Translations under genes and position numbers: made by a program
Notes under the pieces: generated by a model
Told to the model about the DNA's origin: nothing
Seen by the model: the letters and a program-made list of their open reading frames with translations, nothing else
Databases searched by the model: none
Shown here: piece by piece, positions 10,091-62,703 of the stretch
Layout: each line of letters begins with the position of its first letter
How positions within the stretch are numbered: the stretch's first letter is position 1
Assembly: GCF_003334785.1 (NCBI RefSeq)
Contig: NZ_QOWV01000012.1
DNA from: Escherichia coli
GTDB lineage: Bacteria; Pseudomonadota; Gammaproteobacteria; Enterobacterales; Enterobacteriaceae
DNA: 64,000 bases
Direction: 5' to 3' (one strand)

Positions 10091-10851
10091 CCGCGTAGCC
10101 CCCAAATCGTCAGTGCCATCACTACGCCGACGCAGGTAGCCAGCGTCAGCAGACTGGCGATCGCCCAGCGTGCCAGTCCGGTATTGATGTGGCCTTTAAA
10201 CATATCGGCGACGGCATTAATCAACGGAAAGCCCGGCACCAGCAGCAGAACGCTGGCGGCCATCGCAATGGTGGGTGTATCGCTGAAAGTGGGGAGTTGC
10301 AAAAGCAATCCGGAAATGGTGGTGGCGGCGAAAGCGGTAAGGCAAAAGTTGATCTGTGGATGAAGATGACGTTGTGCCAGCAGCTGGCGGATATACATCG
10401 CGGTCGTACTGGCAAAGAAGGTGATGACGGCACCATCCCAGCCACCGTTATTGAGTTTACAGAAACAGGCGCAAGAAAGGCCAACCATTAAGGCTACCAG
10501 CCATCTTGGGTAACGTAATGGCTGAATTTGGCTAAATCGTTTCTCTACGCCTTTGTAATCCAGCAGATGATGCTCCGCAAGAATCACAATGTGCTGGACT
10601 TCAGTCACCACATGCATATTAATGCCGCGATCGTGATTTTTTCGTGTCGATGTCAGGCATTGCCCATCTTTAATAGTTGTCAGCACTATGGCGTTCGAAG
10701 AGATAGAACTTTCGACGCTGTCCATTCCCAACGCCCGACCCAGTCGTGAGGAAAGCTCATCAACCAACGCGCTTTCCGCACCATGTTGCAAAAGAAATAA
10801 TCCACACTGGATACAAAGCCGCGTTACGGCTCGCTGTTGCTCAGTTTGCAT
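10081..10851 (-). CDS. yjjP: ThrE-family inner membrane protein (YjjP)
   Basis: Start chosen at MQTEQQRAV giving 256 aa; multi-TM. Confidence 0.8.
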
Positions 10852-11471
10852 AACTCGCCCTTTGTCATAGACGTGCTGCGTATTGTTCAGATAATGAGAA
10901 TCCATTTGTATCATGAAGCACGGTTGTTTTGCGGTAGGTTAAGATCAAAATTGCGCTGATTAATCCTGGTTATCGGGACAAGCTCGGTGATAAAAAGCGA
11001 ATTATCTCTCGCCGCAAACAAACTATCACATGAATATTATCACTATAATGAATTTATTGTTTTAGCCTTTACGGGTCAGGATAATAGATAGCTGGGCGCG
11101 TTTTTTAGTGTTAACAAGTTAAAATCATCAGATTTTATTGAATAAATATTGATTGTGTGATTCCCGCATTCTGCGGGAAGGGATATCATTTAATTATAAA
11201 TTAAATGAATGTGATTTCTGTTTTTCATTAAGTATTCCTAACAACTTAATGTAGATATTTTAAATGTCTCCAGGCTATTTCACCAGGTTATCATTTGATG
11301 CTAACCTTCTGACACATGCAGTGGAGTTGTTGTGCAGCAGGAGTATGCTGATATGAAAGTGAATGCTAAGGATAATTTATTCGCTTAATCTATTAATTTG
11401 CTGGAAACATTTAAGGAATGAATATCCTGAATAAACCATCATAATTTTTAGACAGTGGATGTGGAGGAAAT

Positions 11472-57841: not shown

Positions 57842-58429
57842 ATGAATACTTTACGTATTGGCTTAGTTTCCATCTCTGATCGCGCATCCAGCGGCGTTTA
57901 TCAGGATAAAGGCATCCCTGCGCTGGAAGAATGGCTGACATCGGCGCTAACCACGCCGTTTGAACTGGAAACCCGCTTAATCCCCGATGAGCAGGCGATC
58001 ATCGAGCAAACGTTGTGTGAGCTAGTGGATGAAATGAGTTGCCATCTGGTGCTCACCACGGGCGGAACTGGCCCGGCGCGTCGTGACGTAACGCCCGATG
58101 CGACGCTGGCAGTAGCGGACCGCGAGATGCCTGGCTTTGGTGAACAGATGCGCCAGATAAGCCTGCATTTTGTACCAACTGCGATCCTTTCGCGTCAGGT
58201 TGGTGTGATTCGCAAACAGGCGCTGATCCTTAACTTACCCGGTCAGCCGAAGTCTATTAAAGAGACGCTGGAAGGTGTGAAGGACGCTGCGGGTAACGTT
58301 GTGGTACACGGTATTTTTGCCAGCGTACCGTACTGCATTCAGTTGCTGGAAGGGCCATACGTTGAAACGGCACCAGAAGTGGTTGCTGCATTCAGACCGA
58401 AGAGTGCAAGACGCGACGTTAGCGAATAA
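57842..58429 (+). CDS. mog: Molybdopterin adenylyltransferase Mog
   Basis: 195 aa starting MNTLRIGLVSISDRAS; GGTG motif. Confidence 0.9.
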   Translation: MNTLRIGLVSISDRASSGVYQDKGIPALEEWLTSALTTPFELETRLIPDEQAIIEQTLCELVDEMSCHLVLTTGGTGPARRDVTPDATLAVADREMPGFGEQMRQISLHFVPTAILSRQVGVIRKQALILNLPGQPKSIKETLEGVKDAAGNVVVHGIFASVPYCIQLLEGPYVETAPEVVAAFRPKSARRDVSE

Positions 58430-58463
58430 AAAAATCCCCCCGAGCGGGGGGATCTCAAAACAA

Positions 58464-59030
58464 TTAGTGGGATTCACCAATCGGCAGAACGGTGCGACCA
58501 AACTGCTCGTTCAGTACTTCACCCATCGCCAGATAGATTGCACTGGCACCACAGATCAGACCAATCCAGCCGGCAAAGTGGATGATTGCGGCGTTACCGG
58601 CAATGTTACCGATCGCCAGCAGGGCAAACAGCACAGTCAGGCTAAAGAAAACGAATTGCAGAACGCGTGCGCCTTTCAGCGTGCCGAAGAACATAAACAG
58701 CGTAAATACGCCCCACAGACCCAGGTAGACACCAAGGAACTGTGCATTTGGCGCATCGGTCAGACCCAGTTTCGGCATCAGCAGAATCGCAACCAACGTC
58801 AGCCAGAAAGAACCGTAAGAGGTGAATGCGGTTAAACCGAAAGTGTTGCCTTTTTTGTACTCCAGCAGACCGGCAAAAATTTGCGCGATGCCGCCGTAGA
58901 AAATGCCCATGGCAAGAATAATACCGTCCAGAGCGAAATAACCCACGTTGTGCAGGTTAAGCAGAATGGTGGTCATGCCGAAGCCCATCAGGCCCAGCGG
59001 TGCCGGATTAGCCAACTTAGTGTTGCCCAT
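58464..59030 (-). CDS. satP: Succinate-acetate/proton symporter SatP (YaaH)
   Basis: 188 aa, six TM segments, starts MGNTKLANPAPLGLMGFGMTT. Confidence 0.9.
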   Translation of the reverse strand: MGNTKLANPAPLGLMGFGMTTILLNLHNVGYFALDGIILAMGIFYGGIAQIFAGLLEYKKGNTFGLTAFTSYGSFWLTLVAILLMPKLGLTDAPNAQFLGVYLGLWGVFTLFMFFGTLKGARVLQFVFFSLTVLFALLAIGNIAGNAAIIHFAGWIGLICGASAIYLAMGEVLNEQFGRTVLPIGESH

Positions 59031-59178
59031 AATTCCTCAAAAATCATCATCGAATGAATGGTGAAATAATTTCCCTGAATAACAGTAGTGTTTTCAGGGC
59101 GCGGCATAATAATCAGCCAGTGGGGCAGTGTCTACGATCTTTTGAGGGGAAAATGAAAATTTTCCCCGGTTTACGGTG

Positions 59179-59892
59179 TCAGACCTGAGTGGCGCTAACC
59201 ATCCGGCGCAGGCAGGCGATTTGCAGTACGGCTGGAATTGTCACGCGATAGGCACTGCCGCTGACCGCTTTAACCCCATTTAATGCTGCGCCCACAGGGC
59301 CTCCCAGACCCGCGCCGCGCAGCAAACCATGCCCAAGCACGCTCATTGCTGCGTGGGTGCGTAAAATGCGGGTCAATTGGCTGGAAAGCAAATGCGACAC
59401 GCCTTTTGCCAATAATTTGTCTTTCATCAGCAGCGGCAGCAGCTCTTCCAGCTCATTCACCCTGGCATCGACCGCGTGCAGAAACTCCTGCTTATGTTCC
59501 TCGTCCATATTCTTCCAGGTGTTACGCAGAAATTGTTCCAGTAACTGTTGCTCAATCTCAAACGTAGACATCTCTTTGTCGGCTTTCAGCTTCAATCGTT
59601 TTGAAACATCGAGCAAAATGGCCCGATACAATTTACCGTGTCCGCGCAGTTTGTTGGCGATACTATCGCCACCAAAATGCTGTAATTCTCCAGCAATCAG
59701 CTGCCAGTTGCGGCGATGTTGCTCGGGATGCCCTTCCATCGATTTAAACAGTTCGTTGCGCATCAGTACGCTGGAGAGGCGAGTTTTGCCTTTTTCATTA
59801 TGGGTGAGCAATCGGGCGAAATTTGCCAACTGTTCCTCACTACAATGCTGAAGAAAATCCAGATCTGAATCATTCAGGTAATTAACATTCAT
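59179..59892 (-). CDS. yaaW: UPF0174 protein YaaW
   Basis: 237 aa starting MNVNYLNDSDLDFLQHCSEEQL. Confidence 0.8.
   Translation of the reverse strand: MNVNYLNDSDLDFLQHCSEEQLANFARLLTHNEKGKTRLSSVLMRNELFKSMEGHPEQHRRNWQLIAGELQHFGGDSIANKLRGHGKLYRAILLDVSKRLKLKADKEMSTFEIEQQLLEQFLRNTWKNMDEEHKQEFLHAVDARVNELEELLPLLMKDKLLAKGVSHLLSSQLTRILRTHAAMSVLGHGLLRGAGLGGPVGAALNGVKAVSGSAYRVTIPAVLQIACLRRMVSATQV
59366..59851 (+). CDS. htgA: Antisense-overlapping ORF inside yaaW, at the position annotated in K-12 as htgA/mbiA; coding status doubtful
   Basis: Open frame of 161 codons from an internal ATG, entirely embedded antisense in yaaW; low-complexity Ser/Cys-rich translation. Confidence 0.3.
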   Translation: MRVNWLESKCDTPFANNLSFISSGSSSSSSFTLASTACRNSCLCSSSIFFQVLRRNCSSNCCSISNVDISLSAFSFNRFETSSKMARYNLPCPRSLLAILSPPKCCNSPAISCQLRRCCSGCPSIDLNSSLRISTLERRVLPFSLWVSNRAKFANCSSLQC

Positions 59893-59917
59893 TTTTTGTG
59901 GTTTCTATATTCTGGCG

Positions 59918-60322
59918 TTAGTCGTCGCCGATAATTTTCAGCGTGGCCATATCCGATGAGTTCACCGTATGACCGGAAAAGGTGATTTTTGAGACGCAGC
60001 GTTTATTGTCGTTATCACTGTTAATGTTGATCCAGTCAGTGGTTTGCCCTTCTTTTATTACTGAAGGAATATTCAGACTCTGACTGGCGCTACGGGCGGC
60101 TTTGAAATAAACCGATGCACCGCTTAACTGTAAATCGCCATGGTCGGCAGAGAGTTGTATGCGTTTCACAATGCGACAAACAGGAAGTTTCAGCGCCAGA
60201 TCGTTGGTTTCGTTACGCGGCATTGCAATGACGCCGAGGAGTTTATGGTCGTTTGCCTGCGCCGTGCAGCACAGCATCAGGCTAATCGCCAGGCTGGCGG
60301 AAATCGTAAAAACGGATTTCAT
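59918..60322 (-). CDS. yaaI: DUF2541 periplasmic protein YaaI
   Basis: 134 aa with signal peptide. Confidence 0.8.
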
Positions 60323-60548
60323 AAGGATTCTCTTAGTGGGAAGAGGTAGAGGGATGAATACCCACTAGTTTACTGCTGATAAAGAGAAGGTTCAGGTACG
60401 TAATCTTTTCTTTTTATTACAATTTTTTGATGAATGCCTTGGCTGCGATTCATTCTTTATCTGAATAAAATTGCTGTCAATTTTACGTCTTGTCCTGCCA
60501 TATCGCGAAATTTCTGCGCAAAAGCACAAAAAATTTTTGCATCTCCCC

Positions 60549-60578
60549 CTTGATGACGTGGGTTACGACCCCATTTAG
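60549..60578 (+). promoter_or_regulatory. dnaK heat-shock promoter P1 (sigma-32)
   Basis: CTTGAT -35 and CCCCATTTA -10 with the extended C-run typical of sigma-32 promoters. Confidence 0.7.
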
Positions 60579-60624
60579 TAGTCAACCGCAGTGAGTGAGT
60601 CTGCAAAAAAATGAAATTGGGCAG

Positions 60625-60651
60625 TTGAAACCAGACGTTTCGCCCCTATTA
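60625..60651 (+). promoter_or_regulatory. dnaK heat-shock promoter P2 (sigma-32)
   Basis: TTGAAA -35 and CCCCTATTA -10. Confidence 0.7.
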
Positions 60652-60698
60652 CAGACTCACAACCACATGATGACCGAATATATAGTGGAGACGTTTAG

Positions 60699-62615
60699 AT
60701 GGGTAAAATAATTGGTATCGACCTGGGTACTACCAACTCTTGTGTAGCGATTATGGATGGCACCACTCCTCGTGTGCTGGAGAACGCCGAAGGCGATCGC
60801 ACCACGCCTTCTATCATTGCCTATACCCAGGATGGTGAAACTCTGGTTGGTCAGCCGGCTAAACGTCAGGCAGTGACGAACCCGCAAAACACCCTGTTTG
60901 CGATTAAACGCCTGATTGGCCGCCGCTTCCAGGACGAAGAAGTACAGCGTGATGTTTCCATCATGCCGTTCAAAATTATTGCTGCTGATAACGGCGACGC
61001 ATGGGTCGAAGTTAAAGGCCAGAAAATGGCACCGCCGCAGATCTCTGCTGAAGTGCTGAAAAAAATGAAGAAAACCGCTGAAGATTACCTGGGTGAACCG
61101 GTAACTGAAGCTGTTATCACCGTACCGGCATACTTTAACGATGCTCAGCGTCAGGCAACCAAAGACGCAGGCCGTATCGCTGGTCTGGAAGTAAAACGTA
61201 TCATCAACGAACCGACCGCAGCTGCGCTGGCTTACGGTCTGGACAAAGGTACTGGCAACCGTACTATCGCGGTTTATGACCTGGGTGGTGGTACTTTCGA
61301 TATTTCTATTATCGAAATCGACGAAGTTGACGGCGAAAAAACCTTCGAAGTTCTGGCAACCAACGGTGATACCCACCTGGGTGGTGAAGACTTCGACAGC
61401 CGTCTGATCAACTACCTGGTTGAAGAATTCAAGAAAGATCAGGGCATTGACCTGCGCAACGATCCGCTGGCAATGCAGCGCCTGAAAGAAGCGGCAGAAA
61501 AAGCGAAAATCGAACTGTCTTCCGCTCAGCAGACCGACGTTAACCTGCCGTACATCACTGCAGATGCGACCGGTCCGAAACACATGAACATCAAAGTGAC
61601 TCGTGCGAAACTGGAAAGCCTGGTTGAAGATCTGGTAAACCGTTCCATTGAGCCGCTGAAAGTTGCACTGCAGGACGCTGGCCTGTCCGTATCTGATATC
61701 GACGACGTTATCCTCGTTGGTGGTCAGACTCGTATGCCAATGGTTCAGAAGAAAGTTGCTGAGTTCTTTGGTAAAGAGCCGCGTAAAGACGTTAACCCGG
61801 ACGAAGCTGTAGCAATCGGTGCTGCTGTTCAGGGTGGTGTTCTGACTGGTGACGTGAAAGACGTACTGCTGCTGGACGTTACCCCGCTGTCTCTGGGTAT
61901 CGAAACCATGGGCGGTGTGATGACGACGCTGATCGCGAAAAACACCACTATCCCGACCAAGCACAGCCAGGTGTTCTCTACCGCTGAAGACAACCAGTCT
62001 GCGGTAACCATCCATGTGCTGCAGGGTGAACGTAAACGTGCGGCTGATAACAAATCTCTGGGTCAGTTCAACCTGGATGGTATCAACCCGGCACCGCGCG
62101 GCATGCCGCAGATCGAAGTTACCTTCGATATCGATGCTGACGGTATCCTGCACGTTTCCGCGAAAGATAAAAACAGCGGTAAAGAGCAGAAGATCACCAT
62201 CAAGGCTTCTTCTGGTCTGAACGAAGATGAAATCCAGAAAATGGTACGCGACGCAGAAGCTAACGCCGAAGCTGACCGTAAGTTTGAAGAGCTGGTACAG
62301 ACTCGCAACCAGGGCGACCATCTGCTGCACAGCACCCGTAAGCAGGTTGAAGAAGCAGGCGACAAACTGCCGGCTGACGACAAAACTGCTATCGAGTCTG
62401 CACTGACTGCACTGGAAACTGCTCTGAAAGGTGAAGACAAAGCCGCTATCGAAGCGAAAATGCAGGAACTGGCACAGGTTTCCCAGAAACTGATGGAAAT
62501 CGCCCAGCAGCAACATGCCCAGCAGCAGACTGCCGGTGCTGATGCTTCTGCAAACAACGCGAAAGATGACGATGTTGTCGACGCTGAATTTGAAGAAGTC
62601 AAAGACAAAAAATAA
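60699..62615 (+). CDS. dnaK: Chaperone DnaK (Hsp70)
   Basis: 638 aa starting [21 protein letters not shown]. Confidence 0.98.
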
Positions 62616-62703
62616 TCGCCCTATAAACGGGTAATTATACTGACACGGGCGAAGGGGAATTTCCTCTCCGCCCGTGCATTCATCTAGGGGCAATTTAAAA
62701 AAG

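Follow-up and report, generated by a model that had tools for sequence, protein, structure and literature searches.

The closest described system is the K-12 MG1655 gene mbiA (also htgA or htpY; b0012, YP_009518733.1), which lies antisense to yaaW at the same position, flanked by satP and yaaI and upstream of dnaK. Delaye et al. (2008; PMC2268670) proposed that htgA was born by overprinting within yaaW in the E. coli/Shigella lineage; the same paper states that the existence of the gene "remains controversial", that sigma-32 does not induce it, that its start was relocated and that one copy carries a nonsense mutation. As far as it is summarized there, the original work on htgA from 1993 comprised cloning, Northern blots, protein labelling and promoter mapping (PMC2268670). 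An intragenic promoter in htgA/yaaW has been reported to be active in vitro (PMC2731890), and the name mbiA comes from Fellner et al. (2014; cited in PMC4683798). If mbiA works as a gene, it would be among the very few documented bacterial proteins born by overprinting within an older gene, and it has long been cited as a textbook example because such births are rarely documented in bacteria. In 2014, Fellner and coworkers reportedly obtained active promoter-gfp fusions and mapped a transcription start site, and their strand-specific stop mutants are said to have altered biofilm and metabolite profiles; the HtgA protein itself, by the same account, could not be expressed. No report of ribosome footprints or peptides for mbiA was found in the literature searched.

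The EHEC candidates nog1/citC, ano/ECs2385, laoB, asa and pop/ompA are likewise described as young, taxonomically restricted and antisense within conserved genes, and they are proposed to have arisen by overprinting, as for mbiA (PMC4683798, PMC5960689). These candidates are reported to be backed by RNA-seq and mostly also by ribosome profiling, whereas the literature searched offered no ribosome-profiling evidence for mbiA and the sequence tests reported below are neutral. A second point of comparison is the "shadow" ORF, of which the frame opposite dnaK is an example: a stretch that is stop-free on the antisense strand as a result of the amino acids and codon usage of the sense gene, as mbiA also appears to be.

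Here, we evaluated the mbiA locus in a 64,000-nucleotide stretch of E. coli DNA (contig NZ_QOWV01000012.1; hereafter, the window). The plus-strand ORF inside yaaW is the known, annotated and published mbiA/htgA/htpY (b0012) candidate, and since the locus has already been annotated and published, it offers nothing new in kind. The added value is cautionary: with YaaW given, chance and the genetic code roughly account for the open frame, for which no separate constraint was seen, whose ends vary and which is broken in Nissle 1917 and CFT073. A chance-level frame with no constraint and variable ends weakens the evolutionary case for a selected protein, and the older experimental reports remain as its support. 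We consider it probable that mbiA is an incidental, evolutionarily young, Escherichia-specific open frame whose product, if made, is under no detectable selection; it is most likely a "shadow ORF", a proto-gene at most, and not an established second gene. Against this reading of an incidental frame stand the published experiments that claim a function for mbiA and the K-12 RefSeq record, which still annotates MbiA.

Coordinates and phase of the embedded frame

The features of the locus, in window coordinates, are as follows.

58464-59030, minus strand: satP, neighbour of yaaW
59179-59892, minus strand: yaaW, the "mother" gene, 237 aa
59252-59848, plus strand: open stretch of the mbiA frame from stop to stop, 199 codons
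59261, plus strand: CTG, the historical htgA start of the original 591-nt annotation (numbering of PMC2268670), within 59252-59848
59357-59359, plus strand: alternative GTG start of the mbiA frame, giving 164 aa here (ORF list)
59366-59851, plus strand: mbiA/htgA ORF from the K-12-style ATG to TGA, 161 codons (161 aa)
59675-59677, plus strand: frame-opening codon AAA (Lys), opposite YaaW Phe73 in Escherichia
59681-59683, plus strand: natural premature-stop site, TGT in the window and TGA in CFT073
59801-59803, plus strand: TGG in the window and TGA in E. albertii, a yaaW-synonymous stop-creating substitution
59849-59851, plus strand: polymorphic mbiA stop codon, TGA in the window and in K-12
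59879-59881, plus strand: downstream TAA used by the read-through allele, product 171 aa
59918-60322, minus strand: yaaI, neighbour of yaaW

The gene dnaK lies downstream of yaaW and yaaI on the plus strand (about 60699-62615). The host gene yaaW was found in 5,425 of 5,426 complete E. coli genomes, and its product carries two Pfam domains (DUF3944, residues 5-39; Ubiq_cyt_C_chap, residues 58-220). The GTG at 59357 is also the start of a 174-aa annotation of the mbiA frame in O55:H7. A sequence-only reading of the window had described a 161-codon plus-strand ORF lying wholly within minus-strand yaaW at the K-12 htgA offset, and this was confirmed both by coordinates and by comparison of the products, in which 160 of 161 residues were identical between the window and K-12 (the difference being N4S). 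The span given in that reading for the ORF, 59179-59892, is that of yaaW; the embedded ORF itself runs from 59366 to 59851. In the K-12 record, yaaW (b0011) occupies 10643-11356 on the minus strand and mbiA (b0012, "uncharacterized protein MbiA") 10830-11315 on the plus strand, and the offset of mbiA from the low end of yaaW is 187 nt in K-12 and window alike. Offset, phase and TGA stop allele are shared, and 7 nucleotides differ; otherwise the window carries the same gene candidate in another strain. From the coordinates, the two frames stand in the 123/213 phase: their wobble positions fall together, and the first codon position in either frame is paired with the second position in the opposite one. 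Delaye et al. (2008; PMC2268670) gave the same phase for htgA/yaaW.

Opening of the frame and its chance expectation

The lineage distribution of the frame was examined in a sample to which a scan of genome contigs contributed 17 loci (E. fergusonii, S. enterica subsp. enterica, S. bongori and Shigella were absent from this sample). YaaW residues 1-233 align without indels across all sampled Enterobacteriaceae, and the antisense frame is therefore comparable codon by codon. No internal stop interrupted the mbiA frame in the window, in three Escherichia of the cryptic clades or in 11 further E. coli chosen to span the range of identities among 5,425 genomes. CFT073, with a premature stop in the mbiA frame, was the exception among the 13 sampled E. 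coli, and in E. albertii the frame is truncated by a TGA at 59801. Two to five internal stops were present in the 11 complete non-Escherichia sequences (Citrobacter, Salmonella diarizonae, Kluyvera, Pseudescherichia and two further enterobacteria). The mbiA ATG was conserved in every Escherichia sampled and missing from several outgroup sequences. In this sample the open frame is confined to Escherichia, and yaaW itself is widespread in Enterobacteriaceae. The conserved ATG and a frame that is intact in the sampled E. coli, bar the CFT073 allele, and in the cryptic clades favor the alternative that mbiA is a genuine overlapping protein gene, which would have arisen de novo in Escherichia and would be translated from the ATG at 59366. 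Its product would be a basic, Cys/Ser-rich protein of ∼17.7 kDa modulating biofilm or, as first claimed, heat-shock gene expression. The published experimental claims and the K-12 annotation also speak for this alternative, which we nonetheless regard as unlikely both for the gene itself and for such a role of its product.

Outgroup YaaW proteins cannot accommodate the open frame: on resampling of their codons, the probability of zero antisense stops was 0 whatever codons were used. The residue pair His72-Tyr73 of Citrobacter, Salmonella and others forces an antisense TAA or TAG, whereas Escherichia has Phe73. Because the outgroup proteins cannot be open and Escherichia has Phe73, we attribute the opening of the frame to an amino acid change in YaaW combined with favorable codons, which fits the overprinting scenario of Delaye et al. 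(PMC2268670). In the sequence of events we propose, replacement of Tyr73 by Phe in the Escherichia lineage would have removed the obligatory antisense stop, and the codons in use would by chance contain none of the other possible stops (a mean of 1.8 expected).

The length of the frame was compared with a null model in which the YaaW protein was held fixed and synonymous codons were resampled from the window's own codon usage. Under this model, the 161-codon stretch contained a mean of 1.76 stops and was stop-free in 13% of trials; open runs of at least 161 codons arose in 27% of trials and runs of at least 199 codons in 7.9%. In the 123/213 phase, an antisense stop depends on a sense Tyr codon whose predecessor has a pyrimidine in third position, or on a sense His/Gln codon whose predecessor has T there, and E. 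coli YaaW contains 26 such stop-capable dicodons. As background, we used 59 annotated neighborhood CDS of strain JNE23-001, the yaaW of which is identical to that of the window. Antisense runs of at least 161 codons were found in 16 of these 59 CDS, 4 of them in the mbiA-type phase (serB, 213 codons; yaaW, 199; dnaK, 183; a phage sheath gene, 167) and 12 in the exact reverse-complement phase (including dnaK, 639; prfC, 463; deoB, 283; deoA, 282). Shadow ORFs of this neighborhood, among which deoA-D reach 240-283 open antisense codons, mostly lie in the exact reverse-complement phase, whereas mbiA lies in the wobble-coincident phase, where open runs are rarer. The sole mildly unusual feature of yaaW was the share of the host gene covered by the open run (84%, rank 2 of 59). 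With the YaaW protein taken as given, the length of the mbiA ORF is roughly no more than chance gives.

Selection and allelic variation along the frame

Selection on the mbiA frame was evaluated by sorting yaaW-synonymous mutations by their effect on MbiA, stratified by transition/transversion. MbiA-changing mutations accounted for 3 of 21 within E. coli (13 sequences; expected 4.6, ratio 0.66) and for 25 of 96 across Escherichia (16 sequences; expected 22.9, ratio 1.09). The corresponding values for groups with a closed frame were 53 of 184 in the Citrobacter/Salmonella group (expected 49.9, ratio 1.06) and 33 of 110 in Kluyvera (expected 31.7, ratio 1.04). The slight shortfall within E. coli is a point in favor of a genuine gene, and with limited power it neither demonstrates nor rules out weak constraint; Escherichia-wide, by our estimate, the counts argue against strong constraint alone (ratio below about 0.6) and are compatible with weak constraint. 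Changes that create a stop in the mbiA frame make up 6 of the 312 yaaW-synonymous single-base opportunities, and the E. albertii site at 59803 is among these six. Because wobble positions are common to both frames, the antisense sequence is maintained as an automatic by-product of selection on YaaW. Two stop-creating events were seen in Escherichia (E. albertii, 59803; CFT073, 59683) against a calculated expectation of about 2.0, which leaves no need to invoke selection for the survival of the frame.

The sequence-only reading had proposed a check for unusually conserved synonymous sites in yaaW. No such excess was observed: dS of the overlap between Escherichia species (0.56-1.02) exceeded that of satP (0.21-0.36) and equalled or exceeded that of yaaI (0.24-0.79). 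Synonymous differences were somewhat rarer in the overlap than in the rest of yaaW (Escherichia: OR 0.49-0.64, p 0.02-0.16, the pairs not being independent), and overlap-versus-rest ratios for closed-frame pairs were similar (0.56-0.71); because lineages with a closed frame show it too, this deficit is a property of yaaW. The power of the synonymous-constraint test is low, since third positions coincide and most yaaW-synonymous sites are also mbiA-synonymous (210 of 312 opportunities). A fourth test looked at amino acid variation, since in the 123/213 phase any constraint on MbiA would be expected to depress dN where yaaW is overlapped. Variable residues numbered 13/160 within the overlap and 8/77 outside it in Escherichia, compared with 50/160 and 24/77 in the outgroups, and their distribution did not differ between Escherichia and the outgroups (OR 0.78, p = 0.61).

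The argument of Delaye et al. from a slower-evolving yaaW was also considered and did not hold up: dN/dS of yaaW does fall 2-3-fold in Escherichia, but to the same degree in the non-overlapped part. As satP shows a similar dN/dS trend in Escherichia, the lower values cannot be attributed to mbiA. A general point made elsewhere is that selection on the main frame can produce conservation of this kind, which "might be solely an artefact" (PMC4182739). Across the four tests, whose power is low in this phase, no purifying selection on the mbiA frame beyond that on the host gene was detectable, and excess constraint in none of four tests counts against a genuine gene.

Allele counts were obtained by searching 5,426 complete E. 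coli genomes with 30-nt allele-specific megablast queries, designed so that each possible 28-nt seed word included the variant base. The premature TGA at 59681-59683 was found in 154 of the 5,426 genomes, including CFT073, Nissle 1917, ATCC 25922 and clone D i14; this CFT073-type stop arises from the YaaW substitution L70F and cuts MbiA to 105 aa. At 59849, the K-12-type TGA was present in 1,500 genomes and TGG in 3,854, the latter allowing read-through to 59879 and a product of 171 aa. The swap between TGA and TGG at 59849-59851 is synonymous in yaaW (Leu14, CTT/CTC). Since alleles of 105, 161 and 171 aa coexist, MbiA length is not conserved within the species. In strain 203740, the yaaW of which is otherwise 100% identical to that of the window, an IS1 at ∼59664 (positions 702-1399 of the extracted locus sequence of that strain) breaks both yaaW and mbiA, and strain PS2Canimalfeces12 carries a similar insertion of IS1X2 in yaaW. 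Because IS1 splits yaaW and mbiA, both frames are dispensable in natural isolates. The integrity and the boundaries of the ORF, by which a functional overlapping gene would be judged, are not maintained across E. coli. Natural null alleles of mbiA persist in successful lineages such as Nissle 1917 and CFT073. For a genuine gene, this variation is unfavorable on two counts: the C-terminus lies 10 residues apart between 28% and 71% of genomes, and a nonsense allele is carried by successful ST73-type lineages.

Expression signals, the putative product and neighboring annotation

A scan of the plus strand for the sigma-70 consensus returned no site upstream of the ORF or inside its 5′ part, and a sigma-32 consensus scan likewise returned no consensus site upstream of the mbiA ATG. 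The strongest sigma-32-like match (59381; 11 of 14 positions, compared with 12 of 14 for the dnaK P1 control) falls within the ORF, past the ATG, and about 0.16 such matches were expected by chance in the stretch scanned. Shine-Dalgarno-like pairing before the ATG at 59366 was −3.9 kcal/mol, a modest value that speaks for a genuine gene and is equalled by 20% of random positions; upstream of the GTG at 59357, pairing was +1.3 kcal/mol, with nothing Shine-Dalgarno-like. That so many random positions pair as strongly, that no consensus promoter lies upstream and that sigma-32 induction was not reproduced (PMC2268670) are points against mbiA as a genuine gene. For expression itself, the pairing energy does not discriminate and the promoter scans speak neither way.

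Transcription of the plus strand might instead matter through RNA. In a further alternative, a functional cis-antisense RNA originating within yaaW would regulate yaaW by transcriptional interference or by formation of an RNA duplex, the ORF being incidental. Such an RNA would reconcile the reported phenotypes with the lack of protein-level constraint, and it draws support from the intragenic antisense promoter in htgA/yaaW reported to be active in vitro (PMC2731890) and from the Northern signals of 1993, as far as these are recounted in PMC2268670. We consider it unlikely, as an Rfam scan of 58300-60800 (E ≤ 1) matched no RNA family, no plus-strand sigma-70 consensus was found upstream of or in the 5′ part of the ORF, the best sigma-32-like match sits inside the ORF and no Escherichia-specific region of extra nucleotide conservation was seen. 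The phenotype reportedly shown by the point-stop mutants of 2014 would also be harder to explain by RNA alone. If the plus strand is transcribed, antisense RNA or noise is a likelier account of the transcript than a messenger encoding a folded protein. A sigma-70-like site was recorded on the plus strand at 59882-59911, at the yaaW 5′ end (TTAACA, 18-nt spacer, TATATT; 10 of 12 matches); it is directed into the yaaW-yaaI spacer, antisense to yaaI.

The translation of the frame is rich in Ser (23.0%) and Cys (9.9%), with a combined fraction of 0.33 versus a maximum of 0.13 among the genes of the window. This richness is a mechanical mirror of the Leu, Glu, Gln and His codons of YaaW, which contains 16.5% Leu, 7.2% Glu and 9.7% Gln + His: in this phase, Leu CTN faces AGN (Ser/Arg), Glu GAR faces TCN (Ser) and Gln/His CAN faces TGN (Cys, Trp or stop). 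Translating every gene of the window antisense in this phase already gives 16% Ser. No family in Pfam or NCBIfam was matched by MbiA, and a homologue search of 5.8 billion proteins turned up only its own cluster. Two candidate homologues, of 201 aa (52% identity; P0002) and 116 aa (P0003), were rejected as chimeras because part of each follows the mbiA frame and part the neighboring plus-strand frame of the same locus; such frame-switching chimeras probably stem from frameshift errors in assemblies. AlphaFold2, run on the single sequence as a weak test of foldability, gave a mean pLDDT of 28.3 without secondary structure. The view of the sequence-only reading that a Ser/Cys-rich translation argues against a folded protein is thus supported by the lack of a Pfam or NCBIfam match and by the mean pLDDT of 28; its remark that overlapping genes have been proposed at this site is likewise borne out (PMC2268670). 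The lack of homologues, of a domain and of a confident fold in these searches and predictions also counts against a genuine gene.

If MbiA is nevertheless a genuine protein, born de novo and still a proto-gene, it would be Escherichia-specific, intrinsically unstructured and ∼10% cysteine, translated at a low level, length-polymorphic (105/161/171 aa) and of small, conditional effect on biofilm, a picture we hold to be doubtful. The incidental open frame described above remains our preferred reading.

Several observations concern annotation around the locus. Opposite dnaK, a minus-strand ORF of 678 aa (60657-62693) outsizes dnaK itself, the reverse-complement frame of which is open throughout, and osmY, prfC, deoA-D, dnaJ and tal carry antisense open runs of 200-460 codons. 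Naive gene calling by longest ORF chose the wrong strand for dnaK and osmY. Upstream of prfC, strain JNE23-001 carries genes for a phage tail and baseplate, and the gene coordinates of the window agree with it from prfC onward, with small offsets; judged from gene coordinates, the first ∼17 kb of the window may differ from JNE23-001 in content. E. coli RefSeq/PGAP annotations label yaaW as "msyB: acidic protein MsyB", and the NCBIfam equivalog NF007593 (PRK10236, 237 positions), which bears the MsyB name, matches YaaW end to end. YaaW is basic (pI 9.25) despite the "acidic protein" label, and the real MsyB (b1051, 124 aa) is not similar to it (BLASTP E = 2.6) and hits another model, NF008544. 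The MsyB label on yaaW therefore looks like a mislabelled family name that has spread to thousands of genomes.
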